64,000 bases of DNA from Candidatus Sungiibacteriota bacterium (GCA_016181585.1 JACOYX010000015.1:8152-72151); one strand, 5' to 3'; numbered from the stretch's first letter, positions 67 through 62,316 are shown. The notes: generated from the letters alone by a model not told the origin. Numbers and translations are program-made.

Positions 67-90
67 TTTTTAGCATATTTCTTGTATAAT
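63..90 (+). promoter_or_regulatory. putative promoter TTGCTT-N16-TATAAT
   Basis: Hexamers read directly; the -10 abuts the left end of repeat 90..249. Confidence 0.35.
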
Positions 91-249
91 AGACTCATTG
101 CACAATAACTACATCTACTGCAATTTCATAATTTTGGCGGCAATTTCAGGACTTGTCGAGTTATTATATATGATACCCTTCCTCATTCTTCATAATTTGT
201 AGCCAAAATTATGAAATTTCGTAACGAAAGTTATTGTGCGGCAGGTCTA
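90..249. repeat. F1 nested palindromic (MITE-like) element, 160 bp
   Basis: Ends TAGACTCATTGCACAATAACT / AGTTATTGTGCGGCAGGTCTA. Second tandem motif ACATCTACTGCAAT. Inner inverted repeat AATTTCATAATTTTGGC / GCCAAAATTATGAAATT. TTCGTAACGAA hairpin. Confidence 0.8.
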
Positions 250-260
250 ATTATTTATTA

Positions 261-1418
261 ATGATAGAATTTAGGATTCTCAAACAATCGAAAAAAAGCG
301 GGGCGCGTATAGGTATTTTGAAAACTACCCATGGGGAAATAGAAACACCTTCTTTGGTGCCGGTGGCGACGCGCGCCGCCATAAAAACGCTGACAGCCCG
401 CGAAACAGAGCGCACCAAGTCGCGGATTTTAATCGCGAATACATTTCATCTGCACTTGCGCCCGGGCGAACATATCATAAAGCACGCGGGAGGTCTGCAT
501 CCGTTTATGCGTTGGAATCATCCTTTGATGACGGATTCCGGCGGTTTCCAAGTATTTAGCCTTGGGTTTGGGAAGGATATGGGCGTGGGGAAACTGTTAA
601 AAATTTTCCCCGAGGGAAACGGCGGAAAAAATAAAGAAACAGTGCGGACGCATCACCAGCCGAAGGAGATGAAAATTGCCGATGAAGGGGTTTGGTTTCG
701 CTCTCCTATAGACGGCAGGAAACTTTTTTTAGGTCCCAAGGAATCAATAAAGATACAGGAGTCGCTTGGTGCGGATATTATGTTCGCCTTCGATGAGTGC
801 ACGCCGCCCTTGGCGACGCGTCCGTACATTGAGCGTTCGCTTGCACGGACGCATGCGTGGGCAAAAATTTGTTTGGATGCGCAGAAAACAAAGCAAGCGC
901 TTTTCGGTATTGTGCAGGGATCGCATTTTAAAGATTTGCGCGAGAAAAGCGCAAAATTTATCGGGGGGCTGGGATTTCCGGGATTCGGTATCGGCGGAGA
1001 TTTAGGGTCAAGCAAGGAAGATATGCTCAAGATTCTCGATTGGACAATGCCTCATCTTGCAGAAGAGAAGCCTCGGCATCTTTTGGGCATCGGCTATCTT
1101 CAGGATATGGAAGCTATTATCAAAACAGGCATAGATCTATTTGATTGTACGGTGCCGACCCACTATGCACGACGCGGCATCGCGTTTACCGCTTTGGGAA
1201 AACTCAATCTGAATCGAACTTTTTTTTTGAAAGACAAAAAACCTCTCGATAAAAAATGCAGTTGCGAGACATGCGCGGAATATACGCGTGACTATATATG
1301 CCATCTCATGCGCGCGGGAGAAATTACAGCAATGCGGCTTTTAACATTTCACAATCTTTTTTATTTCAATACGTTTGTTGAAGGAATAAGGGATAAAATA
1401 AAAAGAGGGAAAATATGA
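261..1418 (+). CDS. tgt: tRNA-guanine transglycosylase (queuine tRNA-ribosyltransferase)
   Basis: ORF track 234..1418 (TTG); first ATG at 261 gives MIEFRIL. Catalytic DSGGFQV, GIGYLQDM and Zn site CSCETC...H are typical of bacterial Tgt. Confidence 0.93.
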   Translation: MIEFRILKQSKKSGARIGILKTTHGEIETPSLVPVATRAAIKTLTARETERTKSRILIANTFHLHLRPGEHIIKHAGGLHPFMRWNHPLMTDSGGFQVFSLGFGKDMGVGKLLKIFPEGNGGKNKETVRTHHQPKEMKIADEGVWFRSPIDGRKLFLGPKESIKIQESLGADIMFAFDECTPPLATRPYIERSLARTHAWAKICLDAQKTKQALFGIVQGSHFKDLREKSAKFIGGLGFPGFGIGGDLGSSKEDMLKILDWTMPHLAEEKPRHLLGIGYLQDMEAIIKTGIDLFDCTVPTHYARRGIAFTALGKLNLNRTFFLKDKKPLDKKCSCETCAEYTRDYICHLMRAGEITAMRLLTFHNLFYFNTFVEGIRDKIKRGKI

Positions 1419-2116
1419 AACTTCATCGTTTTTTCATGCCGTTCAATTATGCTGATGCAGAAGTTGCGCTTCATTTTGCGGATCTGGCGCACCAGTTGCA
1501 AAAAGTATTTCGCTTAGGCAATGGAGACCGTTTGGTTTTGTGCGACGGGATGCGAAACGAGGTAGTGGCGGAAATCACCGAATTGGGAAAAGAGACGGTG
1601 CGGGCAGACATTATCGAGCGGACAGTCAATAATAATGAGCCGTTAATTTCCGCGGCGCTTTATTTGGCAATTTTAAAGCGGGAAAATTTTGAGCTTGCAG
1701 TGCAAAAAGCGGTTGAAGTCGGCATAGCCGAGATTATACCGCTCACCACACAAAGGACGGTGAAATCCGGATTGAATATCGAACGTTTGCAGAAAATCGC
1801 CAAAGAGGCGGCGGAGCAGTCGGGAAGAGGGATTGTCCCGCAAGTGAAAAATATTTGCACATTTGAATCAGCGGTGCGTTCCGCGGCAAAGCAGGGCAGT
1901 GTGATTCTGTTTGACTCGAGCGGCGATGCAATAAAGAGAGCAGTACGCAAATACGCGCATAGTGTAGGTATTTTTATTGGCCCGGAAGGAGGATTTGCTG
2001 AGGAAGAGGTTTTGCTCGCGAAGCAAAATAATTTTTCTATCGCAAGTTTGGGCAAGCTTACGCTTCGCGCCGAAACAGCGGCGGCGGTGGCTTCATATTT
2101 GATAGTGCAAGGATAG
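1415..2116 (+). CDS. rsmE: 16S rRNA m3U1498 methyltransferase RsmE
   Basis: MKLHRFF N-terminus, C-terminal IGPEGGF SPOUT motif; ATGA overlap with tgt. Confidence 0.85.
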   Translation: MKLHRFFMPFNYADAEVALHFADLAHQLQKVFRLGNGDRLVLCDGMRNEVVAEITELGKETVRADIIERTVNNNEPLISAALYLAILKRENFELAVQKAVEVGIAEIIPLTTQRTVKSGLNIERLQKIAKEAAEQSGRGIVPQVKNICTFESAVRSAAKQGSVILFDSSGDAIKRAVRKYAHSVGIFIGPEGGFAEEEVLLAKQNNFSIASLGKLTLRAETAAAVASYLIVQG

Positions 2117-2169
2117 TTGTGGTATTGTTGAAAACAAGTATTTATTGGCGGATAATTTTTTAAAAATTT

Positions 2170-2694
2170 ATGGAAGGAGATAAAGTGTCATTTGTTATAG
2201 CATTGATTATTATTATCGCTATTGCGGCATTGGGATATTGGTATTTGAGCAGGGTGCCGGAAATTCCGAATATTGCGGCACCAACACCGCCTGCACCCGC
2301 TCCCGCACCGGCGCCTACTCCTGTACCACAGCCTTCGGGCGGTGTCACTCCGCCTCCGGCAAACAGTTCGCAGATACAGGTAACTATACTGAAAGAAGGG
2401 GCGGGCGAGGGTGCAAAAAAAGGAGACACAATCACCGTAAATTATACCGGTATGTTTCTTGACGGCAAAGTATTCGATTCAAGCATTCCGCGCGGACAGC
2501 CTTTTGTGTTCAATCTTGGCGCAGGAGATGTGATTCAAGGCTGGGATGCGGGGCTTGTCGGTATGAAGTTGGGTGAGAAGCGAAAATTAGTTATTCCTCC
2601 GGAACTTGCGTACGGAAGCCGCGGAGCGGGTGACGGAGCGATACCTCCCAACTCAACCTTGGTGTTTGAAGTGGAAATGCTGAAGATTAACTAG
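2170..2694 (+). CDS. membrane-anchored FKBP-type peptidyl-prolyl cis-trans isomerase
   Basis: N-terminal TM helix, Pro/Ala-rich linker, FKBP domain (VNYTGMFLDGKVFDSS, VIQGWDAGLVGMKLGEKRKLVIPPELAYG). Alternative GTG start at 2185 behind AGGAG. Confidence 0.88.
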   Translation: MEGDKVSFVIALIIIIAIAALGYWYLSRVPEIPNIAAPTPPAPAPAPAPTPVPQPSGGVTPPPANSSQIQVTILKEGAGEGAKKGDTITVNYTGMFLDGKVFDSSIPRGQPFVFNLGAGDVIQGWDAGLVGMKLGEKRKLVIPPELAYGSRGAGDGAIPPNSTLVFEVEMLKIN

Positions 2695-2711
2695 CATCAC
2701 CTGGTATCATC

Positions 2712-3032
2712 ATGATTTCTTTTGAGGAATTTCAAAAAATAGAACTTCGTGTGGCAAAAATTATTGCGGCGGATCGCGTGGAAAGTTCCGAAAAATTGCT
2801 AAAATTAAAAGTGAGTTTTGGCAATGAAGAACGCCAAGTTGTTGCGGGCATAGGAAAAGCGTACGACCCCGAAAAACTTCTCGGAAGAGAGATTGTGGTC
2901 GTTGCAAATCTTGAGCCGCGTGTGCTTATGGGGCAGGAAAGCCAAGGTATGCTCCTTGCCGCCTCTGATGAAAATGGTCCGGTGCTTCTTATTCCAGACC
3001 ATGAAGTGCCGCCCGGGGCAAAGATAAAATAA
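2712..3032 (+). CDS. tRNA-binding domain protein (CsaA / EMAP-II-like OB fold)
   Basis: FQKIELRVAKII...KLLKLKVSFG...VVAGI...VVVANLEPRVLMG.ESQGMLLAA pattern of CsaA/MetRS C-terminal domain. Confidence 0.8.
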   Translation: MISFEEFQKIELRVAKIIAADRVESSEKLLKLKVSFGNEERQVVAGIGKAYDPEKLLGREIVVVANLEPRVLMGQESQGMLLAASDENGPVLLIPDHEVPPGAKIK

Positions 3033-3051
3033 TGCGCGTATTATTAAAATT

Positions 3052-3125
3052 AAAATAAGGCAAATATCCGCGATCGCGGATATTTGCCTTATTTTAATAA
3101 TAAATCTCCGATTTCTCGGAGATTT
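3052..3125. terminator. bidirectional terminator pair between convergent genes
   Basis: 44-nt perfect palindrome AAAATAAGGCAAATATCCGCGATCGCGGATATTTGCCTTATTTT, plus AAATCTCCGA-TTTC-TCGGAGATTT. Confidence 0.8.
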
Positions 3126-3129
3126 ATGG

Positions 3130-4164
3130 TTATTTTTCAATACAAGTGTTATAAAATTCCTTTATTTTTTCCCGAAGGGATCCGCTATTCTCCATCTCTT
3201 CGATAAATTTTTCCGGAATTATCGATATGCCGTGAAGCGCTCCGAGGAGGGATCCTGTAATTGCGGCGTTTGAATCGGTGTCGCCGCCCATACGGATGCA
3301 GTCCGCGATACAGTCGAAATTTTGCGGATTTCGCAGAAAAGCGGCGTATGAGGTGCCAAGCGAATTTATGGCGGAAAAAGCCGCTTTGGTGCCTCCTCCG
3401 AAACGCATGCTGATCTGGCGCGGCGTTTCGCGTGCAAGCGAGCCGTTTTCTTTCATGGCTGAAAGCAGTGCGATTTGCCGGTAAATGGGCGTTTCGGGTG
3501 AAAGGTATTGCTCAGTAAAAATAGCGTAGGCGCTTATATTCTCCAGAAAATCATTGGGGAGTTCATGGCTCGTCTGTCGGGCAAGAAAATAAACTGCATA
3601 GGCATGAACGCATCCGGCCGCGACGGCGGCAAAAGAACGGTGGGTCATGCGGGCGTAGTCTATGCACTCCTTCAGAAATCTCAAGCGGATAAATTCTTCC
3701 GGCGCTTTTGCGCACATGCTTTCCCGAAGTCCCATGGGCGAGATTTTCATCATAATGCCGTTTCCCTCGCCATGCGGTTCCCCGGATTTTGTCCAATGTG
3801 CTTCTTCTAAAAGCCTTTGGCAGGAATTTCTGGTGGACTTCCCCCATCCACGGCCGGCACTTACTTTGTATGCATCAACGTGTTTTCTCGCGAGTATCTC
3901 CATGTCGAATTTTCCGTTGGATTCAATTAGGCTTTCCATGGTAACAAGGGTGAGCTGGGTATCGTCGCTCCACGATCCTTTTGATTTGCCCACGACATCG
4001 GGAAACGGATGGGGGTTGATGGAGGGGCAAAAATATCCGTCAAGCGTGTAGCCGACCAATTCAAGTATCTCGATTTCATCCGGTGTCATGGTTTCAAACG
4101 GAACACCGAACGCATCGCATACGCCGATTGCCATAATGCATCCCATAAATTTATCAAGGTTCAT
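3130..4164 (-). CDS. ADP-ribosylglycohydrolase family protein
   Basis: C-terminal GGDTDSNAAITGSLLGALHG and N-terminal GVCDAFGVPFE motifs of the DraG/ARH family. Confidence 0.85.
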   Translation of the reverse strand: MNLDKFMGCIMAIGVCDAFGVPFETMTPDEIEILELVGYTLDGYFCPSINPHPFPDVVGKSKGSWSDDTQLTLVTMESLIESNGKFDMEILARKHVDAYKVSAGRGWGKSTRNSCQRLLEEAHWTKSGEPHGEGNGIMMKISPMGLRESMCAKAPEEFIRLRFLKECIDYARMTHRSFAAVAAGCVHAYAVYFLARQTSHELPNDFLENISAYAIFTEQYLSPETPIYRQIALLSAMKENGSLARETPRQISMRFGGGTKAAFSAINSLGTSYAAFLRNPQNFDCIADCIRMGGDTDSNAAITGSLLGALHGISIIPEKFIEEMENSGSLREKIKEFYNTCIEK

Positions 4165-4325: not shown

Positions 4326-4901
4326 ATGTTCTCACTTAAAAAAACAGTAATTATCGCCGCTGTGGCGATTGTCTTTGGGGGTTTTGGCGGATATAAAATC
4401 GGGAGCATTGCGTTTGAAGAAACGAAAGCGCCCGAGAGGATGGAAGAAAAAAAGATAACCGAGGGTGCGTTGAACCTCAAGGCAAGCCCGGCGGAAGTTC
4501 CTCTGAAGAAACCTAATCTGGTGCAGGTTCCTCCGCCTGCCCCGCAAACAAGTGCAGGCGCAGGGGAAGGCGGAAAGATTGCAATGAATGAACAAGCGGC
4601 GGGAATGAGTGTTGCCGTCGCAAACGTATCGCTCCCGGTATCCGGGTGGGTGGCGATTCACGAAGATGCGGGAGGGAAACCGGGGAAAATCCTGGGTGCG
4701 CGCCGTTTCGAGAAAGGAACGCATGCGGGTGTTGTAGAACTGCTTCGCAAAACGGAGGACGGCAAGGCATACTACGCCATGCTTCATGCCGACGATGGCG
4801 ACCGCTTGTTTGATGCAAAAAAAGATATGCCCATGAAAGATGTATCCGGTGCGGCGGTGATGGCAAAATTTAATACGGATCTGGTACCTACTTTGCAATA
4901 A
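4326..4901 (+). CDS. hypothetical membrane-anchored protein
   Basis: N-terminal TM helix, Pro-rich linker, C-terminal beta-rich domain (GWVAIHEDAGGKPGKILG). TTGCTT-N17-TATTAT promoter upstream. Confidence 0.6.
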   Translation: MFSLKKTVIIAAVAIVFGGFGGYKIGSIAFEETKAPERMEEKKITEGALNLKASPAEVPLKKPNLVQVPPPAPQTSAGAGEGGKIAMNEQAAGMSVAVANVSLPVSGWVAIHEDAGGKPGKILGARRFEKGTHAGVVELLRKTEDGKAYYAMLHADDGDRLFDAKKDMPMKDVSGAAVMAKFNTDLVPTLQ

Positions 4902-5924: not shown

Positions 5925-5999
5925 TAGGTCTACTGCATAAAGATTTTCGTTACGAAATTTCCAGCGAGAAGACGCAGGTAAAAATTACGAGGCATATAC
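5925..5999. repeat. F1 partial element
   Basis: TAGGTCTACTGCATAAAGATTTTCGTTACGAAA. 25-nt module GGTAAAAATTACGAGGCATATACAA (5977-6001) is identical to the reverse complement of 22011-22035. Confidence 0.7.
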
Positions 6000-6000
6000 A

Positions 6001-6774
6001 ATGAGATGGTTACAAACCTCCATATACATTTTGTCCAACGCAAAAAAACCTAAAAAAAATCGTCTTGATGAATGGCTCATGCAAAGCGGGTTTGTTTCGG
6101 ACGCAAAAGCCGCTTTTATTGTGGTGACGGAGGGTCGGGTTTTTGTCGACGGGCAAAAGGCGGTGTCTCCGGCGCAGGAATTCCCCGAAACGGCAAAAAT
6201 CGAAGTTCGCGGCAGAAGAAAATATGTCGGGCGCGGCGCGGAAAAACTTGCAGGTGCAATGGAAAAATTTCAGGCGGAAGCTGACGGGAAAATTTGTGCG
6301 GATATCGGTTCTGCAACAGGCGGGTTTACGCAGGTGCTTCTGGAAAACGGCGCAAAAAAAGTATATGCGATCGACACGGCAAAAGGAAAGCTTGATTTAA
6401 AATTGCGCGAAGATCCGCGTGTCGAGGTAATGGAGGGCACCGATGTTCGTGATATTAAAAAATTGCAGGATACTCCCAAACTTGTTACGATTGACGTATC
6501 GCTGGTATCGCTCCGCAATATTTTACTTGCGGTTATGCGGCTTATGCCGCAAGGAGGCGAAGTTGTTGCTTTATTTAAACCGCAATACGAAACGCGGGAC
6601 CCTAAAATGCTTAAAGCGGGCATTGTGACGGATGACATATATCGCGAGGCTCTGTTTCAAGATTTTATCGCATGGGCACGGGAAGTCGGCTGGAAAGTGA
6701 TGCAAACCATGGTATCACCCATTCGGGGCGGAGAGGGGAATGTTGAGTATTTAATACATCTTAAAAGATTATGA
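6001..6774 (+). CDS. tlyA: TlyA-family rRNA 2'-O-ribose methyltransferase (S4 + FtsJ domains)
   Basis: RLDEWLMQSGF..S4-like N-terminus, RGAEKL, SAM motif DIGSATGGFTQ. Alternative TTG start at 6031. Confidence 0.85.
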   Translation: MRWLQTSIYILSNAKKPKKNRLDEWLMQSGFVSDAKAAFIVVTEGRVFVDGQKAVSPAQEFPETAKIEVRGRRKYVGRGAEKLAGAMEKFQAEADGKICADIGSATGGFTQVLLENGAKKVYAIDTAKGKLDLKLREDPRVEVMEGTDVRDIKKLQDTPKLVTIDVSLVSLRNILLAVMRLMPQGGEVVALFKPQYETRDPKMLKAGIVTDDIYREALFQDFIAWAREVGWKVMQTMVSPIRGGEGNVEYLIHLKRL

Positions 6775-7862: not shown

Positions 7863-7935
7863 TAGACCTGCTGATTAAAGATTTTCGTGACGAAATTAGA
7901 AAAAAGCAGTAGAAAAATCTTTACGCAGTAGGTGT
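7863..7935. repeat. F1 element, 73 bp
   Basis: TAGACCTGCTGATTAAAGATTTTCGTGACGAAA ... AAAATCTTTACGCAGTAGGTGT. Confidence 0.75.
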
Positions 7936-7978
7936 ATCGGCTTTTAAAAAAAAAGTAAACAAGGTACTGTATGTATGA

Positions 7979-17421: not shown

Positions 17422-18480
17422 ATGTCAATGTTTGAAAAATTATTCGGAAAATTTGCGCACGATATCGGCATAGACCTGGGTACGGCCAATACTCTGGTGT
17501 ATGTTCGCGGAAAAGGGATTGTGATCAACGAACCTTCGGTAGTGGCGATCAACCAGAAAACCGGACAGATTGTTGCGATTGGCGAAGAGGCAAAACGCAT
17601 GGTAGGGCGCACTCCTGCCTATATTACCGCGATCCGTCCTTTGGTGGCGGGGGTGGTTTCGGATTTTGAGGTGACGGAAGAAATGCTCAAATATTTTATC
17701 CGCAAAGTGCATGAAAAAACCTTTAGCATGCTGGCGCGTCCCATGGTGGTGATCGGTATTCCTTCGGGAATTACTGAAGTGGAAAAACGTGCGGTTGAGG
17801 ATGCCGCAAAAAACGCCGGTGCGCGGGAAGTTTTTTTAGTGGAGGAGCCGATGGCGGCCGCTATAGGTGTGCGTCTTCCGGTGCAGGAGGCGGTGGGTTC
17901 GATGATTGTGGATATTGGCGGCGGCACGACCGATATCGCAGTCATTTCTCTTGGCGGGATTGTGGTCTCAAAAGATTTGAAGATAGCGGGAGACAAACTG
18001 AACGACGATATTATCCGCTTTGCCCGCGAGGAATTTAAACTGCTTTTGGGAGAGCGGACGGCAGAAGACATTAAAATCGCAATCGGTTCGGCATATGAAC
18101 TTCCCGAAGGGTATGAAGCCACCATGCGGGGAAGGGATTTGGTAACGGGGCTTCCGCGGGAAATTTTAGTAGATGATGCCGATATCCGCCGTGCCATACG
18201 GCATTCTATTCATATTTTGGTAAATGCCATTAAAGGCGCTATCGAAGAGACACCGCCGGAGCTGGTGGCGGATATTATGCATCGCGGCATTACCCTCGTG
18301 GGCGGCGGGTCTCTTTTGCGGGGACTTGACCGATTGATACACGAAGAGACCAAAATTCCGGTGAGGGTTGCGGAAGATCCGTTGTCGTCCGTAGTGCGGG
18401 GAACGGGGATTATTCTTGAGGATATCGAATCGGTGAAAAATGTGCTGGCAAAAATTGAAAACGAAACGGCAATTTTGTGA
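17422..18480 (+). CDS. mreB: rod-shape protein MreB
   Basis: IGIDLGTANTLVY, DIGGGTTDIAV, actin fold throughout. Confidence 0.95.
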   Translation: MSMFEKLFGKFAHDIGIDLGTANTLVYVRGKGIVINEPSVVAINQKTGQIVAIGEEAKRMVGRTPAYITAIRPLVAGVVSDFEVTEEMLKYFIRKVHEKTFSMLARPMVVIGIPSGITEVEKRAVEDAAKNAGAREVFLVEEPMAAAIGVRLPVQEAVGSMIVDIGGGTTDIAVISLGGIVVSKDLKIAGDKLNDDIIRFAREEFKLLLGERTAEDIKIAIGSAYELPEGYEATMRGRDLVTGLPREILVDDADIRRAIRHSIHILVNAIKGAIEETPPELVADIMHRGITLVGGGSLLRGLDRLIHEETKIPVRVAEDPLSSVVRGTGIILEDIESVKNVLAKIENETAIL

Positions 18481-18609
18481 TTTTAAGTGTTGTCTCCGCT
18501 TGGCATTGCGCTTTCTCGATACGCTCGGCCGCTTCTCAAAATTGTCTCGGAAGCGTAACGCCTAGCTTAGACATGCCAACTAGATGTATTGATCGACTTT
18601 TTAAAATCA
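18478..18609. repeat. F5 palindromic element between mreB and mreC
   Basis: Outer TGATTTTAA / TTAAAATCA. Core ACGCTCGGCCGCTTCTCAAAATTGTCTCGGAAGCG. Confidence 0.6.
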
Positions 18610-18634
18610 CAAAATTACTGTTTGTGGGGGTGGT

Positions 18635-21930: not shown

Positions 21931-22102
21931 TAGACTTGCTCCCTAATAACAAATCTACTGCAATTCCAGAATTTTGGCTGAGACTTGGTAAAAATTTCTC
22001 GACAGATACCTTGTATATGCCTCGTAATTTTTACCAAGTCTCGCCTAAAATTCTGTCCCGACGCGTCGGGATCGTAACGAATGTTATTAGGGAGCAAGTC
22101 TA
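21931..22102. repeat. F1 composite element, 172 bp
   Basis: TAGACTTGCTCCCTAATAAC + AAATCTACTGCAATTCC ... GTTATTAGGGAGCAAGTCTA. Inner ~30-bp arms CAGAATTTTGGCTGAGACTTGGTAAAAATT / AATTTTTACCAAGTCTCGCCTAAAATTCTG. Confidence 0.85.
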
Positions 22103-27388: not shown

Positions 27389-28354
27389 ATGAATATTATC
27401 CAAAAAATCAAAGATACATTGAAGTCCCCACACAAACCGAGTGTGGGGTTTTATGAAACAGCGCAAAAATATACGGTAAGTTTTTCCGCTGAAATCCGCA
27501 ACAATGATTCCGAAGAGCGTTCTTGCCGCATTGTGTTTCCTATTCCATTTTCCGATGCTTTTCAGGAATGCGGGGATGTGCTTTTTTTTCCGCAGGGAAA
27601 TGTTCGTGCGCACGATCCTGTGCACAATAACACCTATGCCTATTGGAAGATACTCCTTGCGCCTAAAAATACGGCAGTGATCCGGGAAAATTTTGAAGTG
27701 CTCGCGCGTCCGCGCCGTATCGCGTTTGATGAGGTGAGGGGTACACTTGAGGATTATGCCGCGTTTGATCAAACTCTTGTCGGGCGCCATATGCACAGCA
27801 ATCGATTTGTTAGCGGCGAAGATGAAAGGATTAAAAAAATTGCAGGCGCGATTGCGGGTAGCGAAAAAAATATCGCAAAAATAATCACCAGCATAAACAA
27901 ATACACCATTTCTCGGTTGTTTTATGGAAACCCTATCAAGGGACTTTATTCCTTTTCGGATGCGCTGGAGAAAGAAAAAGTGGATTGCGGCGGTTTTGAT
28001 ACTCTGCTGGTCTCTCTTCTCATAGCGGCAGGGGTTCCTGCACGCGTGGTCTCCGGATTTTTTGCCGGATATCCTGGAAACTCCATGCATGCATGGGCTG
28101 AAGCCTTGCTTCCGGACGGAAGGTGGTTTCCGCTTGATCCTTCAATAGAAAAATTATCGGGTGAAAAGAAAACCAAAAAATCCGGAAGGGCTGGCTTTAC
28201 GGGAAGCGATCGCATAGCGCTTTCGGTGGGCTGTGATATACGGATTATTGTCGATGGCGTTGAGCATCAAATTGATATTTTGCAAAACCCCGTTATTTTT
28301 GCGGATGGCAGGGAAAAAGATTTTTCGCTACGCGTTAATTTTTCTACGCAATAG
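27389..28354 (+). CDS. transglutaminase-like cysteine protease superfamily protein
   Basis: Cys-His-Asp core: VDCGGF, SMHAWAE, FPLDPS. The TAG stop lies inside repeat 28352..28425. Confidence 0.8.
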   Translation: MNIIQKIKDTLKSPHKPSVGFYETAQKYTVSFSAEIRNNDSEERSCRIVFPIPFSDAFQECGDVLFFPQGNVRAHDPVHNNTYAYWKILLAPKNTAVIRENFEVLARPRRIAFDEVRGTLEDYAAFDQTLVGRHMHSNRFVSGEDERIKKIAGAIAGSEKNIAKIITSINKYTISRLFYGNPIKGLYSFSDALEKEKVDCGGFDTLLVSLLIAAGVPARVVSGFFAGYPGNSMHAWAEALLPDGRWFPLDPSIEKLSGEKKTKKSGRAGFTGSDRIALSVGCDIRIIVDGVEHQIDILQNPVIFADGREKDFSLRVNFSTQ

Positions 28355-28425
28355 ATCCGTCCCCTAATAACAAATCTACTGCAATTCCGGAATTTCGTAA
28401 CGAAAGTTATTAGGGGGCAGGTCTA
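28352..28425. repeat. F1 minimal unit, 74 bp
   Basis: TAGATCCGTCCCCTAATAAC AAATCTACTGC AATTCCGGAATT TCGTAACGAAA GTTATTAGGGGGCAGGTCTA. Its first TAG is the stop codon of CDS 27389..28354. Confidence 0.85.
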
Positions 28426-28438: not shown

Positions 28439-29683
28439 ATGGAAAAACCCATATTTACATCTTTGTCTCCCAATGTTGAAGGCGATGATATACTGCGATC
28501 ACTTATCTATTTTTGCATGCCGTGGAAATGGCGAACGGGGAGTTATCCGGCAAAAATTGAAGAGGAATTTCGTGTTCGGCTCGGCGTGCCATTTGCCTAT
28601 TCATTTGAGAGCGGACGCAGTGCGCTCTGTGCTATTTTAAATCAACTCGGGCTTCGTTCGGGTGATGAAGTTATCGTGCAAGCGTTTACTTGTGTTGCGG
28701 TTCCCAATGCCGTGCTGTGGGCCGGCGCGAAACCTGTTTATGCGGATATCGACGCCCGGACATTCAACATATCTTTGGGCGAATTTGAAAAAAAAATTAT
28801 GCCGCATACCCGCGCGGTGATTATCCAGCATACGTTTGGTTTTCCCGCAGATATGCAAAAAATTATTGCAATCGCGCATGCGCATAATATTTTTGTGATA
28901 GAGGACTGTGCGCATGCGCTGGGGGTTTTTTATCAAGGCCGGCCGATGGGCACGTTCGGGGATGCCGCTTTTTTTAGTTTTGGCCGCGATAAGGTGCTCT
29001 CTTCGGTGTTTGGGGGAGTTGCGGTGACACGCGACGAAGCGCTCGGGGGAAAACTGGCATCTTTCCAAAAAACGCTTCCAAAAGCAAATCTTTCTTGGGC
29101 GGCAAAACAGATAATTCATCCGGCGCTTACCGCTTTTATCCGTTCAACGCATTGCAAATGTGCCGGGAAAATAGGCAAGATTTTTTTGAAGTTTTTGCTG
29201 GGATTGCGGATTATCACCAAAGCGGTTATGCCCGAAGAAAGAAAGGGTGGCCAGCCTCGGTGGATTTTGCGCCAAATGCCAAATGCGCTTGCGGCGTTTG
29301 CTTATTATCAAATGCAAAAACTCGAGCGTTTTAATAGCCATCGAAGAAAAATTGCTTTGCGTTACCGCGAACTTCTGGCGGGTATTTTGGCACAACCCCT
29401 AAACCCGGATGCCATCTATCTTCGCTATGCTATTCGCCTGCCGAATAAAGAAAATATTTTTTTGAAAGCAAAAAAGCGCGATATATTTTTAGGAGACTGG
29501 TATGGGCAGGGAGTGGCGCCAGCAGGAGTGGATTACCGCGCAATAGGATATGATCCCGCTTCATGCCCTGAAGCTGAAAAGGCGGCGCGAAAAGTTATTA
29601 ATTTGCCGACGGATATACATATTGGCGAAAAGGAGGTTGAAAGAATTGTAAAATTTTTGAGAAATAATACCGAATTAGTCTAA
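28439..29683 (+). CDS. DegT/DnrJ/EryC1/StrS-family PLP aminotransferase
   Basis: Family-wide pattern incl. IEDCAHALG and FSFGRDK (PLP lysine). Confidence 0.88.
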   Translation: MEKPIFTSLSPNVEGDDILRSLIYFCMPWKWRTGSYPAKIEEEFRVRLGVPFAYSFESGRSALCAILNQLGLRSGDEVIVQAFTCVAVPNAVLWAGAKPVYADIDARTFNISLGEFEKKIMPHTRAVIIQHTFGFPADMQKIIAIAHAHNIFVIEDCAHALGVFYQGRPMGTFGDAAFFSFGRDKVLSSVFGGVAVTRDEALGGKLASFQKTLPKANLSWAAKQIIHPALTAFIRSTHCKCAGKIGKIFLKFLLGLRIITKAVMPEERKGGQPRWILRQMPNALAAFAYYQMQKLERFNSHRRKIALRYRELLAGILAQPLNPDAIYLRYAIRLPNKENIFLKAKKRDIFLGDWYGQGVAPAGVDYRAIGYDPASCPEAEKAARKVINLPTDIHIGEKEVERIVKFLRNNTELV

Positions 29684-29790
29684 TTGTTCTAATAGACCTG
29701 CTGATTAAATCCCGATGATCCAATATGAAAAACCAAAAAATTACAGACATTAGATGTTTTAGCATTTTGTAATTGATTAGAACAATTAGA
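29679..29790. repeat. F1-containing palindromic element, 112 bp
   Basis: Outer inverted repeat TCTAATTGTTCTAAT / ATTAGAACAATTAGA enclosing TAGACCTGCTGATTAAA. Overlaps the stop of the DegT gene. Confidence 0.7.
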
Positions 29791-29809
29791 TCCATTAGAA
29801 ATTGTACAC

Positions 29810-31872: not shown

Positions 31873-32026
31873 GCGGCTTTCTCGGCATTGTCTTTCTGCG
31901 GTCCGCTTGTCCGCCCAGCGGCGGACTCGCTAAGGGATCGTCGGGTTTTCATGCGAGTACGCATGAACCATGCAAACCCGACGATCCAATTACCGCAGAA
32001 AGACAATGCCGAGGTCGCTATTTTTA
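31873..32026 (+). ncRNA. candidate ~150-nt Y-shaped structured RNA or elaborate ftsQ 3' terminator
   Basis: 21-bp perfect closing stem (31881-31901 / 31993-32013). Two arms: GTCCGCC-CAGC-GGCGGAC (31909-31926) and a 13-bp stem (31936-31948 / 31974-31986) capped by CATGCG-AGTA-CGCATG. Followed by TATTTTT. Strand tentative. Confidence 0.45.
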
Positions 32027-36094: not shown

Positions 36095-36110
36095 AGGAGT
36101 GATATACTTA

Positions 36111-36163
36111 AGACCTATCGCACTACGAAAGTTATTGAAGCTGTCTTTTTGTGCAGTAGGTCT
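36111..36163. repeat. F1 short element, 53 bp
   Basis: AGACCTATCGCAC TACGAAAGTTATT ... GTGCAGTAGGTCT. Confidence 0.75.
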
Positions 36164-36192
36164 TTATAGTATATTTATAATACAGAACTCCT

Positions 36193-39100: not shown

Positions 39101-39241
39101 ATGGGGATGCAATATAAAAATATACAAAAAGAACTTGATGCGTATCTTCGCAAATTTGCCGAGCTCGAAAAAGAAAAGGAGCGGATTTTGGCGCAATATA
39201 AAAAATATCTTGAGGCGATAAAGAGAAGAAAAAGTCATTAG
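39101..39241 (+). CDS. possible 46-aa coiled-coil sORF
   Basis: Own translation: MGMQYKNIQKELDAYLRKFAELEKEKERILAQYKKYLEAIKRRKSH. Weak SD; the stop lies in the F1 repeat half-site. Below the ORF-track cutoff. Confidence 0.35.
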   Translation: MGMQYKNIQKELDAYLRKFAELEKEKERILAQYKKYLEAIKRRKSH

Positions 39242-39253
39242 GGGACAGGTCTA
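39234..39253. repeat. F1 solo right end
   Basis: GTCATTAGGGGACAGGTCTA versus GTTATTAGGGGGCAGGTCTA at 28406. Confidence 0.6.
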
Positions 39254-43223: not shown

Positions 43224-43227
43224 TCCT

Positions 43228-43306
43228 GAATTATGAATCAAGAATTATGAATTGTGTATAAGAAATTTTTTCCATGATTCATGCTTCGTAATTCATAATT
43301 CAATTT
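43228..43306. repeat. F3 ATTCATG-heptad palindromic element in the dnaK leader
   Basis: GAATTATGAATCAAGAATTATGAATT ... CATGATTCATGCTTCGTAATTCATAATTC. Confidence 0.65.
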
Positions 43307-45343: not shown

Positions 45344-45452
45344 ATAATGGGTCTGTTGTCAAATACGCTTTCTCCTGCAAATGATGAATTTCTGCCAAAA
45401 TAGCTTCAAAACTTTTTGGCTTATCTTCCAGATAGGCCTCAAAGTTTGTTCA
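45344..45452. repeat. F1b element copy A (right end degenerate)
   Basis: 67 nt (45369-45435) identical to 62219-62285. Confidence 0.85.
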
Positions 45453-45485
45453 GCAATTTTGTCTAGATTAATATAAATTATATTA

Positions 45486-47607: not shown

Positions 47608-47838
47608 GGATATATCTTTTGAAGACACGTTCGGCCGCTTCCATCGGCGTCCTCGTGAACTTAAGCGCGGCGTCCCGATTTTCCTTTATAAATTTATTTA
47701 ATGGATATCTGGAACCAATGTTTCGTCTTTCGACGGACGAACCCCCGGGAAGTTTTAAGCGCTTCGCTAAACTTCACGCTCGAGCCAAGCAGTTGGCTCA
47801 AGCCCGCGCTTCCAAATTGTCTTCAAAAGATATAATCC
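47608..47838. repeat. F5 element with a nested ~170-nt insertion
   Basis: 20-nt inverted repeat GGATATATCTTTTGAAGACA / TGTCTTCAAAAGATATAATCC. The F5 core is split: ACGTTCGGCCGCTTCC (47628-47642) ... GCGCTTCCAAATTGTCTTC (47806-47824). Confidence 0.6.
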
Positions 47839-47994: not shown

Positions 47995-48221
47995 AGACCC
48001 TGTTCAACATCTTTCTTCCAGAGACATTTTAGTGATATTTTGAGCCACGCTAGAAATATAATGATTTCTAACGGAGTGAGCGAAAAACCTGAAGACCGGC
48101 GAGGCGTAGCGAATAGCTACGCTGAGGATGTCTGAAGGTTTTGCAGCTGAATTAGCAAATTCATGACTTGGTCCAAAATAGCACAAAATGGAGTCGGGAG
48201 AAGAGATGTTGAACAGGGTCT
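47995..48221. repeat. 227-bp element with 18-26-bp terminal inverted repeats (F1-like ends)
   Basis: AGACCCTGTTCAACATCTTTCTTCC ... GGAGAAGAGATGTTGAACAGGGTCT. No credible ORF inside. Confidence 0.75.
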
Positions 48222-54085: not shown

Positions 54086-54264
54086 TAAAATTAAAAAATC
54101 AAAATGAAAAATGACAATGTAAAATGAAAAATTGACTGCTCTTTGGTCATCCTGAAGGAGCGAAGTGACTTAGGGATACTCTTTAATACAATGAGATCCT
54201 TACGCTAGCTCAGGATGACACTTCGCATCAATTTTCCATTTTTATATTTCATTTTTAATTTATC
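54086..54264. repeat. F2 element between atpB and atpE
   Basis: Arms TTAAAAAATCAAAATGAAAAATGACAATGTAAAATGAAAAATTGA / TCAATTTTCCATTTTTATATTTCATTTTTAATTT. Core inverted repeat GTCATCCTGAAGGAGCG... / ...GCTAGCTCAGGATGAC. Confidence 0.7.
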
Positions 54265-55462: not shown

Positions 55463-55612
55463 TAGACCTGCTGCTTAATTATTTTCATCGCGAAATTTTC
55501 ATATTTTGAGCGAGTGTTGCAAAAATTTTGAAGCATATATAAGCGGTATATGTTGAGAAATTTTTGCAAAGCCACAGCCAAAATATGAAGATTGCAGTAG
55601 AAAAATAATTAA
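55463..55612. repeat. F1 composite element, 150 bp, between atpH and atpA
   Basis: TAGACCTGCTGCTTAATTATTTTC ... GCAGTAGAAAAATAATTAA. Inner arms ATTTTCATATTTTG / GCCAAAATATGAAGAT and GTTGCAAAAATTTT / GAAATTTTTGCAAAG. Confidence 0.8.
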
Positions 55613-55639
55613 ATTAAAGCGGAAAAAATCGGCCGTGTT

Positions 55640-58130: not shown

Positions 58131-58149
58131 TAGACCGATCCTAATAAAA
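58131..58149. repeat. F1 solo left end
   Basis: TAGACCGATCCTAATAAAA versus TAGATCCGTCCCCTAATAAC. Confidence 0.45.
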
Positions 58150-58193
58150 TATGCCGGAGAGATTCCGACATATGAGTGCTTTTAGACGATTTT

Positions 58194-58274
58194 TTAAGGA
58201 ACTTGATTATTGCGGCAGGTGTTCCAAGCGACCCAAACGGCAAATGCTACAATTACAGCTAATGGTCCGAACAT
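58194..58274 (-). CDS. sORF-3, 26-aa hydrophobic peptide
   Basis: Own translation: AGGGGG-N5-ATG. The SD overlaps the last codons of sORF-2 and the ATG is 2 nt after its stop. MFGPLAVIVAFAVWVAWNTCRNNQVP*. Confidence 0.5.
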   Translation of the reverse strand: MFGPLAVIVAFAVWVAWNTCRNNQVP

Positions 58275-58276
58275 GG

Positions 58277-58354
58277 TTACCCCCTTATAAGTATATAAAT
58301 AATGGCAACTGTAGCCAAAGCACCGACGACGTATCGAATAGTCTCTCCGTCCAT
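58277..58354 (-). CDS. sORF-2, 25-aa hydrophobic peptide
   Basis: Own translation: TAAGGAG-N8-ATG; MDGETIRYVVGALATVAIIYILIRG*. Starts 20 nt after the sORF-1 stop. Confidence 0.5.
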   Translation of the reverse strand: MDGETIRYVVGALATVAIIYILIRG

Positions 58355-58374
58355 TTTCACTTCTCCTTAATTTC

Positions 58375-58446
58375 TTATAGGTTAAGCAATTTATATATCA
58401 CAACTCCACAAAGAACAACAAGCCCTACCAAAAGTAATGACATCAT
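58375..58446 (-). CDS. sORF-1, 23-aa hydrophobic peptide
   Basis: Own translation: AAGGAG-N11-ATGATG; MMSLLLVGLVVLCGVVIYKLLNL*. Single predicted TM helix. Confidence 0.4.
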   Translation of the reverse strand: MMSLLLVGLVVLCGVVIYKLLNL

Positions 58447-58448
58447 AA

Positions 58449-59879
<1,431 letters not shown>

Positions 59880-59880
59880 A

Positions 59881-60000
59881 ATGCAAAATTTAAAAATTAA
59901 AATGTAAAGGAAGCGTGTCGCTTCGCGGAGAATTTATATAAAAATTTATGAGCGAAACGAATACCAAATTTTTTTCATTTTGATTTTTAAATTTTTAATT
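59881..60000. repeat. F2 element between atpD and atpC
   Basis: Arms AAAATTTAAAAATTAAAATG / CATTTTGATTTTTAAATTTTTAATTT. Core GAAGCG-TGT-CGCTTC. Confidence 0.65.
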
Positions 60001-60003
60001 TCT

Positions 60004-60267
60004 ATGAAAGTTTCCATCTACTCCATTCAAAATACCCTCTATGAAGGGGATGCGGAAAAACTCATCATCAAAACGCCGATGGGGGAGATTGCGGTACTTG
60101 AAAACCACTTGCCGATAGTTTCTAAAGTCATCGGCCCGTCAGCAAAAATTATTGACAAAAATAAAAAAGAGCATACAATTAAACTATCATCCGGTTTTAT
60201 TGAGGTACGCCATCAAGAGACTGGCGGAGAAAGCCGTGTAGTCATTTTGGCGGAAGGAGAGAAATAA
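60004..60267 (+). CDS. atpC: F-type ATP synthase subunit epsilon (beta-sandwich only, 87 aa)
   Basis: ATG 60004 (MKVSIYS...) within ORF 59980..60267. G.I.VL.NH.P pattern. No C-terminal helical hairpin. Confidence 0.8.
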   Translation: MKVSIYSIQNTLYEGDAEKLIIKTPMGEIAVLENHLPIVSKVIGPSAKIIDKNKKEHTIKLSSGFIEVRHQETGGESRVVILAEGEK

Positions 60268-60273
60268 AATCTT

Positions 60274-60735
60274 ATGCTCCCTGAACCATTTCTCAAGTTC
60301 AAATATTCCATGGAGCACTACACTGCCGGAGCGTATGTGGTGCGGTGTTTCGATGACCGCGAGCAGTTTCGAAAAGGTTTTGACGATGTTATGCATACGC
60401 TCGATTTGGAGCACTACGACGGTCCGGTGTCGCTTGCCGGAGGCGCAAAAGTTCTTGCAAAACCGGAACATGAGCATATTGCCGATTTTTTTTCAGGTGA
60501 AATCGCAAAATCGGAGAAACTGCATCATACTAAGCGGGTTATACTTTTTTCCCATCATGACTGCGGCGCATGCGGAGGGTTTGCGGCGTTCGATAACGAC
60601 TACGAAAAAGAGTTTGAATTTCATAAAGAAGAATTGCATCGAAAAGCGCGGGAAAGTATTTTACAAAAATTTCCCAATATGCATATTGATTGCTTCTTTA
60701 TTGGGCACAACGGTGCACACAAATTTTCTTTTTAG
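60274..60735 (+). CDS. hypothetical protein with beta-carbonic-anhydrase-like zinc motifs
   Basis: VVRCFDDR (CxDxR) at residues 25-29 and SHHDCGACGG (HxxC) at 94-97, with an intervening LAGG. Fold assignment is tentative. Confidence 0.45.
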   Translation: MLPEPFLKFKYSMEHYTAGAYVVRCFDDREQFRKGFDDVMHTLDLEHYDGPVSLAGGAKVLAKPEHEHIADFFSGEIAKSEKLHHTKRVILFSHHDCGACGGFAAFDNDYEKEFEFHKEELHRKARESILQKFPNMHIDCFFIGHNGAHKFSF

Positions 60736-60783
60736 CGTGCCCGGAAAATTAAAATACCCCACTATCGGGGTATTTGTTATATC

Positions 60784-60854
60784 AGATCTACTGCAAATAA
60801 TGTGTTTCAGCGATTTTGGCGCGAATTTAATTTTCGCATTGTGCAATGGGTCTA
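60784..60854. repeat. F1 element, 71 bp
   Basis: AGATCTACTGCAAATAATGTG ... CATTGTGCAATGGGTCTA (the right end matches the left end of the copy at 90). Abuts the IDO-like stop codon. Confidence 0.75.
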
Positions 60855-60856
60855 CC

Positions 60857-62107
60857 TTATTTTTTTATCACTCTGCGCGGCGGCGGATGGATTAAAAAAG
60901 ATTTTGCGTGCTCGTGCAAACGCTCGAGCCATGCAAGCGGTGTTCCTCCCGTGCCGTGGGTGTCGCCAAATTCTTTAATATAGTCGCTGGCAAGAGAGAA
61001 ATGCTCCGCACGCCAATCCACTACGAACTGCGCAAGCGCGTTGTAACTCCGGACTAGCCGGGGATTTTTTTTACCGTAGAGATCAACAAACGAGCGGATA
61101 TTCCAGTGTGCAAGCGTGCTCTCTACCAGCGCGCGGTGATGGCCGGACATATACAGCCTCATTTCCGGAAAATATGGAATATGCGCAGGATACATTCCCA
61201 AAAGGGAAAGGATGGTGTGCATGAATGGTGTCTGTCCTCCGGTTTCCCCATAAAAACTCTTAGGCGTCTCACTTACTCCCTCAAACACTACATTTTTTGG
61301 AAAAATATAGAATTTACGGACACTATCGAAGTATGTGCGATAGTCACACTGCTCGCGCATGCGTTTGAATATCGCAAGAGTTGTTTCAAGCGCAATCACC
61401 GCATCCTGCATTTTCACGATAACAACATCTGTCGCCTCTTTTTTATGATCAATCAGTTCAATGAAGTGCGCGGCAATAAGCAAGTCGGTTAAGGCTGGCG
61501 CCACGGTTTTCTCGATCACCTGGTGAATATTTACAAACCACTCCTCGTCTCTGGTGCCCGTGAACGAGTGTACGAGCTTGATGTTTTTAAGCGAAATCTT
61601 TTTTGTTTTGTCGGGAATGTCGTAGTTATAAAGAGAATACAGCATATAGGAAAATGATGGAACGGTTTTTATCTCTTGCGCAACCAACCATAACGGCTTT
61701 GCAAGTTTTGCAGGTAGTATTTTTATTGAGGAATCTTTTTGCACTTCGCCCGCCGTTTCATATTCCAGTGTTTCATTGAAATATGAATGAGTCAGGATTC
61801 CCAGCATGTGCATAAGCCAATATTGCTGGCGCGTGCTAATATACCTAAAAAAGTAATAGTTCGAGATGGGTGGAAGATGCGCCAGCGTTTCTGTAATGCG
61901 TTTTTCCCGAATAAGATTCGGCAGATTGTCTGTTGCGGTTTGCAACGCTTCAAAGTATTCGGTATATAGATTGTTGAAATTCTCCATTGGAGACAATGTA
62001 AGTACTGGATTTTCAGCTAAAAAACCGAATTCCGGTGATGCATAATGCGTTTCAAGCAATGCACGAACTTGTATATTCGCCGTATCAAGCGCTTTACTGG
62101 AGTTCAT
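60857..62107 (-). CDS. indoleamine 2,3-dioxygenase (IDO/PrnB)-family haem protein
   Basis: ETGGQTPFMHTILSLLGM, FPEMRLYMSGHHRALV, WRAEHFSLASDYI...THGTGGT (proximal His region) match IDO signatures. Confidence 0.75.
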   Translation of the reverse strand: MNSSKALDTANIQVRALLETHYASPEFGFLAENPVLTLSPMENFNNLYTEYFEALQTATDNLPNLIREKRITETLAHLPPISNYYFFRYISTRQQYWLMHMLGILTHSYFNETLEYETAGEVQKDSSIKILPAKLAKPLWLVAQEIKTVPSFSYMLYSLYNYDIPDKTKKISLKNIKLVHSFTGTRDEEWFVNIHQVIEKTVAPALTDLLIAAHFIELIDHKKEATDVVIVKMQDAVIALETTLAIFKRMREQCDYRTYFDSVRKFYIFPKNVVFEGVSETPKSFYGETGGQTPFMHTILSLLGMYPAHIPYFPEMRLYMSGHHRALVESTLAHWNIRSFVDLYGKKNPRLVRSYNALAQFVVDWRAEHFSLASDYIKEFGDTHGTGGTPLAWLERLHEHAKSFLIHPPPRRVIKK

Positions 62108-62198
62108 ATGTAGCCTCTCTTTCTTTTTTAATATTATTAATGTTCAGGTACTATATAAATATACTATTTTTTAATATTTGTCAACGCGTGCGCATAAT

Positions 62199-62316
62199 GG
62201 ATCTCCTGCCAAATACCATTTCTCCTGCAAATGATGAATTTCTGCCAAAATAGCTTCAAAACTTTTTGGCTTATCTTCCAGATAGACCTCAAGGTTTTGG
62301 TATTTGGCAGGAGACC
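62199..62316. repeat. F1b element copy B, 118 bp with intact terminal inverted repeats
   Basis: GGATCTCCTGCCAAATACCA ... TGGTATTTGGCAGGAGACC. Lies between the IDO-like and dinB starts. Confidence 0.85.

Follow-up and report, generated by a model that had tools for sequence, protein, structure and literature searches.

A probable new family of miniature inverted-repeat transposable elements with a conserved long hairpin in Parcubacteria-type genomes

Introduction

Palindromic sequences that resemble each other recur in the intergenic spacers of a contig of Candidatus Sungiibacteriota bacterium (GCA_016181585.1, JACOYX010000015.1:8152-72151), and this locus raises the question of whether they form a single family of mobile elements and, if so, how such elements would move. 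We analysed a stretch of 64,000 nucleotides of this contig, hereafter called the window. A preliminary description of this stretch had proposed a dispersed, Correia/RPE-like family of non-autonomous mobile DNA. Our analysis upholds the core of this proposal, with a different anatomy: the family presents a target-site duplication, insertions in both orientations, an intergenic location, filled and empty spacers, contig breaks inside copies, and hundreds of copies elsewhere. These sequences are probably a new family of transposable elements of the miniature inverted-repeat type (MITEs), mobilised in trans by a transposase encoded elsewhere.

The genomes of the Candidate Phyla Radiation (CPR, or Patescibacteria) measure about 1 Mb; they are commonly described as streamlined, with few repeats. 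One gene-less family makes up about a quarter of the intergenic DNA in this Candidatus Sungbacteria contig. Its copies occupy 13 of the 33 spacers of at least 50 nt (1,362 nt, ~23% of intergenic DNA), and not "most intergenic spacers" as first announced.

Anatomy of the repeat family

Copies were searched for in species-representative genomes with the pattern TCGTNACGAAA-N11-GCAGGTCTA, which returned 6 loci, and in metagenomes with the pattern TAGACCTNCTGC-N11-TCTACTGCAA, which returned 108 contig stretches. A profile hidden Markov model (HMM) and a covariance model (CM) were trained on copies from outside the window and then run on the window. The canonical element measures about 161 nt, with 60 of the 78 copies possessing both ends falling between 160 and 164 nt. 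The full span of complete copies is 66-466 nt: four of the 78 are 66-104 nt long, and the remainder, of 183-466 nt, have further small foldback elements lodged within their central hairpin. Variants as short as 63 nt also exist.

The element is composed, in order, of AGACCTRCTGC, a variable stem, TCTACTGCAA, a long variable hairpin, TTTCGNNNCGAAA, the complementary stem and GCAGYAGGTCT. In the orientation initially adopted, the consensus reads T/AGACCTRCTGC, stem A (8-9 nt, variable), TTTCTACTGCAAT, the long hairpin (~85 nt), ATTTCGNNNCGAAA, stem A' and GCAGYAGGTCT/A, the slash marking the junction with the flanking base. The terminal inverted repeat AGACCTRCTGC...GCAGYAGGTCT (11-12 bp) is nearly invariant, and the pairing reaches ~20 bp. 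The long hairpin occurs as several sequence subtypes, which have an equal length and a conserved base TTTTGGCTGC...CTCGCTCAAAAT. This order of motifs is identical in the window, in the metagenome-assembled genomes (MAGs) of GTDB and in the 108 metagenome contig stretches. No conserved open reading frame (ORF) was found in the element among the copies examined. Small size (<~600 bp) without a transposase ORF, terminal inverted repeats and many dispersed copies are all present. Every structural feature of a MITE is found except an identified parent insertion sequence.

The motif by which the family had first been delimited, TAGAYCYRYTGC, matches the window only twice (0.05 matches expected by chance), but the family itself is real. 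Its sub-motifs are indeed present well beyond chance in the window, with eight occurrences of TCTACTGC, five of GCAGGTCTA and four sites for TTTCGNNNCGAAA. The history of the copies is also the reverse of what had been supposed, namely a 74-bp minimal unit enlarged by additional modules. The canonical form has 160-164 nt, and the short forms, including both 74-nt copies of the window, are independent internal deletions, because their variable stems match those of particular full-length subfamilies: the stem of the short form at 28352 is that of the full-length copy at 21931, and the short copy of locus L097 matches that of L084, from which it looks to differ by a deletion between TACGA repeats. 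Similarly, the identical 25-nt block at 5977 and 22011 is a genuine match, but it corresponds to the hairpin tip of two oppositely oriented copies and lends no support to an exchange of modules.

Several of the longer copies carry recognisable inserts. A second small foldback family, CCCCGTTAGAAGTCT...AGACTTCTAACGGGG, lies within the long hairpin of 161-nt elements with an apparent TTCA duplication (L065 2792-3146, L089 984-1227, L102, L048 6164-6628, L115). Another insert, CCCCACACCTAATT...AATTAGGTGTGGGG, is located at a constant point of the 3' arm of the hairpin (L034, L100, L079, L014 11821-12056), and a unit of ~110 nt, CCATTCCATCTGTAT...TATGGAAGGGTATA, was found in the hairpin tip (L065, L102, L048), with two tandem units in L048. 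No Rfam family matched these nested inserts. In addition, some loci (L026, L027 and L082; L009 and L041) display mixed flanks around a copy: L082, for instance, is like L027 on the left side of the insertion and like L026 on the right side. Such contigs result either from recombination between copies or from assembly chimeras formed through the repeat.

Target-site duplication and filled or empty sites

We compared the sequences flanking 79 non-redundant insertions, taking AGACC...GGTCT as the element proper, and evaluated the agreement between both sides with 20,000 permutations. The flanking 3-mers are identical in 46 insertions, for 19.9 expected, and none of the permutations reached this value. 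The identical triplets are ATT (25), AAT (14), ACT (3), TAT (2), TAG (1) and TTT (1). Moreover, the middle base agrees in 60 of the 79 insertions (33.2 expected), including C..C and G..G cases, while the flanking 4-mers are identical only once. Read from these sequences, the flanking repeat is a 3-bp target-site duplication with A-N-T, mostly A-W-T, as the target. The TA flanks reported previously are therefore to be reinterpreted: T and A are indeed observed on either side, but as part of the 3-bp A-N-T direct repeat that surrounds AGACC...GGTCT. The TATAAT or CATAAT hexamers noted before the left ends are real as well, and they are explained by the AAT/ATT target together with upstream positions rich in T, A or Y. 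At position -4 of the left flank, pyrimidines are preferred, a tendency that has no mirror on the right flank.

A single copy among the 79 lies within an ORF, the others being intergenic. Between tandem genes, 16 copies have the same direction as their neighbours and 26 the opposite one; 11 copies are flanked by convergent genes and 7 by divergent ones. Many neighbouring ORFs stop 1 nt before the element (TAA-T/AGACC) or use the junction T/AG as their stop codon. Copies can donate stop codons as well as ribosome-binding sites, which affects gene calling. About 30 contigs terminate 80-123 nt into a copy, so this family is one cause of the fragmentation of CPR metagenome assemblies.

The comparison of orthologous spacers, suggested in the preliminary description, revealed sites that are filled in some relatives and empty in others. 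The spacer between the transglutaminase-like and DegT-like genes contains a copy in the window, where it measures 84 nt. It is reduced to 0 nt in L117 and to 5 nt in L118, and in L116 its 57 nt include a solo "AATAGGTCTATT". On the 3' side of the DegT-like gene, the spacer is filled in L117 (element terminus), vestigial in the window and lacking in L118. Similarly, the spacer between dnaK and the next gene contains a copy in the window (269 nt) and is empty in L119 (41 nt); a copy is present upstream of hrcA in L119 and none in the window. Two spacers are therefore filled in the window and empty in a relative, and one shows the reverse situation, among distant relatives only. Because of the target duplication and of these filled and empty sites, we conclude that the copies arise by insertion. 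Such sites also constitute natural markers for strain tracking.

Secondary structure and strand asymmetry

RNAalifold, applied to an alignment of 45 copies, predicted one long hairpin of 56 pairs, 42 of which display compensatory double changes. With this predicted structure held fixed, 93.9% of the cells are paired. The number of compensatory cells amounts to 353, compared with 103.8±9.4 in shuffled alignments (0/500) and 37-77 in slid registers. The motifs TTTCGNNNCGAAA and TTGCAGTAGA are conserved and non-complementary, and are predicted to oppose each other as an asymmetric internal loop. In an alternative fold, TTTCGNNNCGAAA would form its own 5-bp hairpin; covariation does not distinguish between the two because the positions of TTTCGNNNCGAAA and TTGCAGTAGA are invariant.

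The two strands of the element are not equivalent. Compared with the orientation initially chosen, its reverse complement has the more stable fold in 33 of 34 copies (mean of -71.5 vs. -60.5 kcal/mol), and G·U wobbles number 184 on this better-folding strand vs. 47 on the other. The ratio does not depend on the direction of the flanking genes (46:11 when they run with the element, 44:12 when they run against it), so it cannot be put down to transcription- or replication-linked mutation bias. It becomes 79:31 when related copies are collapsed into 75%-identity clusters and 49:24 when distinct column pairs are counted. With the consensus structure fixed, 149 G·U are found vs. 45 A·C, and 25 vs. 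11 pairs favour the better-folding strand (p=0.03). The most conservative tests of the asymmetry give p of ~0.005-0.03, and its strength is uncertain because some of the wobble positions were inherited by many copies. This bias leads us to infer a stage of the life cycle at which one particular strand is single-stranded and folded, either as DNA or as RNA. A conserved small peptide on the better-folding strand was also considered and rejected: a 16-codon ORF exists in one subtype, and stop codons are found at this place in the others.

Search for a transposase

The preliminary description reported no transposase in the window, and we reached the same result. The main ORFs scanned against Pfam are either housekeeping genes or without match, and neither a Y1/HUH family nor a Y1_Tnp domain was found. 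No transposase was detected either in ~700 kb of related loci. An all-against-all clustering of 564 ORFs located near copies did not reveal any recurring protein family other than housekeeping ones, the largest cluster being a P-type ATPase found in 7 loci. The scan of viral contigs with the left-end pattern gave no match. Left ends without a nearby right end correspond in every case to a contig end or to a slightly diverged right end.

Two further leads were discarded. An apparent "element" of 1,819 nt is actually made of two separate copies. The 1.2-kb difference between L062 (9503-10699) and L050 (4883-4888), two contigs otherwise 99.8-99.9% identical, corresponds to an unrelated gene and not to the family; this segment contains an ORF open over 396 aa (likely starting at an internal M, ~380 aa), to which we assigned no function.

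Origin and mobility of the family

The duplication, the terminal inverted repeats and the absence of coding capacity are best accounted for by the MITE family proposed above. A transposase encoded elsewhere would bind both ends and cut the target with a 3-nt stagger, and the element would be inserted into A/T-rich A-N-T sites at gene boundaries. In these compact genomes, the surviving insertions are located just after stop codons or before start codons, within transcription units and in either orientation, and the terminal TAG and the purine-rich segments sometimes come to act as stop codon or ribosome-binding site. Copies decay by internal deletion into short forms of 63-104 nt and by truncation, and other small foldback elements insert into them. 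The hairpin has been kept by compensatory changes, wobble pairs being tolerated on one particular strand. Because no autonomous copy was found, we only infer the mobilising enzyme and a DDE-type staggered cut, the latter from the duplication.

Several observations weigh against this explanation. The 3-bp repeats are perfect in only 58% of the insertions, and a 2-bp duplication combined with an asymmetric end is possible. The filled and empty sites come from fairly distant pairs (64-74% amino-acid identity for DegT, 85% for DnaK), and not from strain-level alleles with an exact footprint. An autonomous copy, i.e. the same ends around a transposase gene, was not found among 124 left-end matches, the window and the ~700 kb of loci. 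Moreover, ordinary MITEs need only their terminal repeats, and the fixed length, the internal motifs conserved across subtypes, the heavy covariation and the wobble bias are not predicted by a plain double-stranded cut-and-paste. A strand-specific foldback of ~160 nt with a conserved asymmetric internal loop may be required, either as single-stranded DNA during transposition or as an RNA of use to the element or to its host, an idea that we regard as tentative and rather doubtful. If true, transposition would proceed via a strand-specific foldback intermediate that still makes a 3-bp duplication or, alternatively, a mobile class of structured non-coding RNA would exist across Parcubacteria-type genomes. 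Whatever the case, fixed length, covariation and strand-specific wobble make this family a good test case for a single-stranded stage in MITEs.

The strand asymmetry bears on two other explanations. The family is unlikely to consist of single-strand transposons, or of foldback elements that pass through single-stranded DNA, whether akin to palindromic elements derived from IS200/IS605 or to REP/RAYT systems, or moved by a new mechanism; in such a case, one strand would be excised or copied, fold into the long hairpin and be recognised via its asymmetric internal loop. The same strand does fold better in nearly all the copies with a wobble bias independent of gene direction, the unpaired motifs conserved in one arm are not those of the other, and the pyrimidine preference at -4 concerns the left flank only. 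However, part of this asymmetry derives from wobbles shared by descent, as the p-values of the strictest tests recall, and the Pfam scans of the window gave no transposase family, whether Y1/HUH or other. The HUH single-strand transposons (IS200/IS605, IS91, Helitrons) are not known to duplicate their target or to carry terminal inverted repeats, whereas the present family shows both features. Insertion into the lagging-strand template would also be expected to cause a strong orientation bias, which is not observed (26 vs. 16 among the loci; 5 vs. 4 among the solid copies of the window, under a uniform GC skew). The very strong covariation on one strand, with a tolerance of G·U typical of RNA, could suggest a structured RNA, i.e. 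a multi-copy non-coding RNA or an mRNA stability or processing hairpin cut by RNase III-type enzymes, mobility being secondary. Copies located within transcription units such as the atp and dnaK operons must indeed be transcribed, and Correia and ERIC elements have been reported to affect transcript processing (PMC10969869). This explanation appears quite improbable. Among 42 tandem contexts, the sense strand of the neighbouring genes coincides with the better-folding one in only 26, and co-oriented and opposed copies do not differ in their wobble bias, so that many copies would have to be read antisense. In addition, no properly spaced -35/-10 pair was seen by eye in the consensus, no promoter scan having been run; Rfam returned no family for the window at gathering thresholds, and only chance-level matches at permissive thresholds for the window, single copies and nested inserts. 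The target duplication and the filled or empty sites, finally, indicate insertion.

The preliminary description had also evoked protein-recognition or DNA-uptake sequences occurring as inverted pairs, as well as a role as transcription terminators or punctuation. The ends do form a 12-bp inverted pair, and TTTCG-N3-CGAAA resembles the binding site of a dimeric protein. However, near-exact matches to the end motif are confined in the window to the sites initially listed, except for a single weak coding match, GCAGTTCTA at 4735. The motif is therefore not over-represented on its own inside genes, and we also rejected an assimilation to the DUS/USS uptake sequences. With respect to termination, the hairpin is not followed by a U-tract, and the copies lying in the atp operon (between atpH and atpA) and in the dnaK cluster, i.e. 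between genes of essential operons that need co-transcription, must be transcribed through. Neither role explains the conserved 161-nt architecture and the target duplication, and we give this last set of explanations hardly any credit. The MITE family mobilised in trans thus remains the explanation that we favour.

Distribution of the family

Five of the six species-representative loci come from CPR MAGs, in which the architecture is unchanged and 8 kb often contain several copies; other contigs contain 3-4 copies per 8-14 kb. The 108 metagenome stretches include 0.1/0.2-µm filtrates of the Hainich aquifer and several JGI projects. Part of the window is also present in the Logan assembly SRR12113430. 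Two loci (L004 and L007) are titled Parcubacteria. An extension to Saccharibacteria was considered and then withdrawn, as the RecG encoded by L005 ("Candidatus Saccharibacteria") is 81% identical to that of Candidatus Staskawiczbacteria. The titles of L003, L005 and L006 ("uncultured Candidatus Saccharibacteria bacterium") are therefore probably generic Patescibacteria labels. The range documented for the family is several Parcubacteria-type (CPR/Patescibacteria) lineages and many groundwater metagenome contigs. Our search of the available literature for MITEs, palindromic repeats or these terminal sequences in CPR/Patescibacteria found nothing relevant, and these phyla are absent from a 2024 review of prokaryotic MITEs.

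The RecG of L005 (5286-7877) presents a PD-(D/E)XK-type domain (PF13366) inserted in the middle of the helicase. Many of its close homologues, aligned over 47% of the query only, do not have PF13366 among their precomputed Pfam domains.

Copies and genes of the window

Fourteen sites had been listed in the preliminary description. By combining nhmmer and CM searches with a reading of the sites by eye, we retained nine solid copies and four short or degenerate remnants (Table 1); the site at 58131 is not a member, as it has only TAGACC in common with the family.

Table 1. Copies and remnants of the repeat family in the window. The class is that given by the HMM and CM searches.
Position	Strand	Class	Description	Support
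90-249	-	Canonical	Full-length copy, 160 nt, upstream of tgt; flanked on each side by AAT (direct repeat); better-folding strand is the window minus strand	CM 110.8 bits, E=6e-27; nhmmer E=5e-27
5925-6005	+	Truncated	Truncated copy: one terminus, TTTCGTTACGAAA motif and half of the long hairpin	nhmmer E=1.2e-10, model positions 77-160
7863-7936	+	Canonical	Short form, 74 nt, long hairpin deleted; between an M50 protease gene and an oxidoreductase gene	CM 56.3 bits, E=1e-12
21931-22102	-	Canonical	Full-length copy, 172 nt, between PBP2 and greA	CM 127.7 bits, E=2.6e-31
28352-28425	-	Canonical	Short form, 74 nt, AAT direct repeat; stem of the 21931 type	CM 67.7 bits
29693-29710			Terminal fragment TAGACCTGCTGATTAAA, found downstream of a DegT-like gene; the 7863 copy has the identical end	Sequence reading
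36110-36164		Weak remnant	Degenerate, rearranged short copy; TTA direct repeat flanks	CM 20 bits, E=0.003
39238-39253			Terminal fragment TTAGGGGACAGGTCTA, resembling the right end of the 28352 copy	Sequence reading; missed by both HMM and CM
45344-45470	-	Diverged ends or other hairpin subtype	Ends diverged and hairpin of another subtype; located between dnaK and the next gene	nhmmer E=2.7e-8; CM 29.8 bits
47995-48222	+	Diverged ends or other hairpin subtype	Related foldback element, termini AGACCCTGTTCAAC...GTTGAACAGGGTCT	nhmmer E=1.8e-4; CM 31.4 bits, E=3e-6; inverted repeat
55463-55622	+	Canonical	Full-length copy without one terminus, in the ATP synthase operon between atpH (delta) and atpA	CM 98.7 bits, E=9e-24; nhmmer E=1.6e-29
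60783-60854		Weak remnant	Degenerate short copy AGATCTACTGCAA...GCAATGGGTCTA	nhmmer E=0.037; CM 11 bits, not significant
62198-62322	-	Diverged ends or other hairpin subtype	Subtype of the 45344 copy, terminal repeat GGATCTCCTGCC/GGCAGGAGACCC; upstream of dinB	CM 38.7 bits, E=4e-8; nhmmer E=9e-10

Some of these copies are closely intertwined with the neighbouring genes. The truncated copy at 5925 runs to the ATG (6001) of an FtsJ/TlyA-like gene (6001-6774, Pfam FtsJ), and a GAGG derived from the element lies 8 nt upstream of this ATG. The first TAG of the copy at 28352 is the stop codon of the transglutaminase-like gene (27389-28354), whose homologue in L116 continues for a few codons up to its own TAA. 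The copy at 45344 is inserted directly 3' of TGTATAAT, and the relative L121 possesses an unbroken TGTATAAT after the equivalent terminator, which is suggestive only.

Other copies differ by their internal organisation. An extra 18-nt GC hairpin stands beside the TCGTAACGA motif in the copy at 21931, whose terminal inverted repeat is perfect over 21 nt and whose direct repeat is AAT. A small hairpin nested in the element at 47995 (48040-48085), CGCTAGAAAT...ATTTCTAACGG, is a mini-version of the second foldback family described above. The copy at 62198 has (C)ATAAT on both flanks, and the fragments at 29693 and 39238 are reduced to termini of 16-18 nt.

The window has a GC content of ~45% and a GC skew that is positive throughout. 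The DnaK that it encodes shows 100% identity with a protein of a Candidatus Sungbacteria MAG. Its genes include tgt, rRNA and tRNA methyltransferases, an M50 protease, PBP2, MreB/C, GreA, several aminoacyl-tRNA synthetases, the hrcA-grpE-dnaK-dnaJ cluster, uvrA/uvrC, the ATP synthase operon and dinB. One gene (60857-62107, minus strand) encodes a protein of the indoleamine 2,3-dioxygenase (IDO) family (Pfam E=1e-45), which is unexpected in a reduced CPR genome.

Independently of the family, a GC-rich stretch of ~220 nt (47611-47834) is bounded by a perfect 17-nt inverted repeat, TATATCTTTTGAAGACA / TGTCTTCAAAAGATATA, and has no Rfam match. A clearly similar sequence is found in L121 (~2560-2760), where it follows dnaK, vs. 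dnaJ in the window. This stretch may represent a non-coding RNA gene not yet recognised, or else a further mobile element. Further intergenic inverted repeats outside the family were observed at 3044-3103 (arms of 30 nt, 93% complementary), 18464-18623, 29666-29803, 31881-32013 (perfect arms of 22 nt at 31881/31992), 43227-43302, 54088-54261 and 59879-60001; some may be terminators and others further small repeat families.

Comparison with known systems

With integron attC sites, the elements have in common a variable sequence with a conserved structure, imperfect palindromes with boxes at both ends, and one strand whose folding matters. This identity was rejected, as the RYYYAAC/GTTRRRY cores are absent in most copies, many of which have stems such as GTAAAGAT/ATCTTTAC without AAC/GTT; moreover, the copies lie in both orientations among housekeeping genes and not in a co-oriented array next to an integrase, and they are flanked by a duplication. 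REP/BIME sequences with their RAYT enzymes and the elements derived from IS200/IS605 are likewise intergenic hairpins with a strand-specific recognition of folded DNA, and the GTAG-like tetranucleotides found at the foot of REP stems recall the GCAGTAGG observed here. REPs are 20-40 nt long and have neither terminal inverted repeats nor a target duplication. We rejected this affiliation too, since the unit described here has 161 nt with a duplication and the genes of the window lack a Y1_Tnp domain. The same applies to the palindromic elements derived from IS200/IS605, which have subterminal hairpins but no terminal inverted repeats and insert, with no duplication, 3' of a fixed tetra- or pentanucleotide, whereas the present family combines terminal repeats with a duplication whose middle base varies.

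The likeness with Tourist MITEs and the PIF-Harbinger/IS5 group concerns the 3-bp duplications at A/T-rich trinucleotides, the short terminal repeats and the non-autonomous copies that far outnumber their parents. The Harbinger target is TWA. The A-W-T target of the present family differs from it, and no related transposase was found here. The bacterial ISL2 subgroup of IS5 presumably uses ANT, although a literature search did not confirm it. Canonical Harbinger transposons do make 3-bp duplications (PMC12730594).

Correia elements (CREE) resemble the present family in several respects: they have terminal inverted repeats and a target duplication, form a hairpin when transcribed, lie next to genes to which they can supply expression signals, and exist as full-length and internally deleted size classes. 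Their duplication is TA, and their repeats have ~26 bp of a different sequence. Correia elements are restricted to Neisseria, whereas the family described here has a duplication of 3 bp and an invariant terminus of 11-12 bp. Identity with them was rejected, because the duplication has 3 bp and the bases outside TA are identical and not complementary.

ERIC elements share with our family imperfect palindromes of ~130-160 nt without ORF, an intergenic location within transcription units in either orientation, and a presence in many genera with widely varying copy numbers. They also share the lack of a known transposase and the existence of variants with internal deletions or insertions. The sequences are unrelated and the host here is a Parcubacteria-type CPR bacterium; unlike ERIC, the present elements show a clear 3-bp A-N-T duplication, a length fixed at ~161 nt and conserved asymmetric internal motifs. 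Among the systems compared, it is nevertheless like ERIC and Correia elements that this family behaves most.

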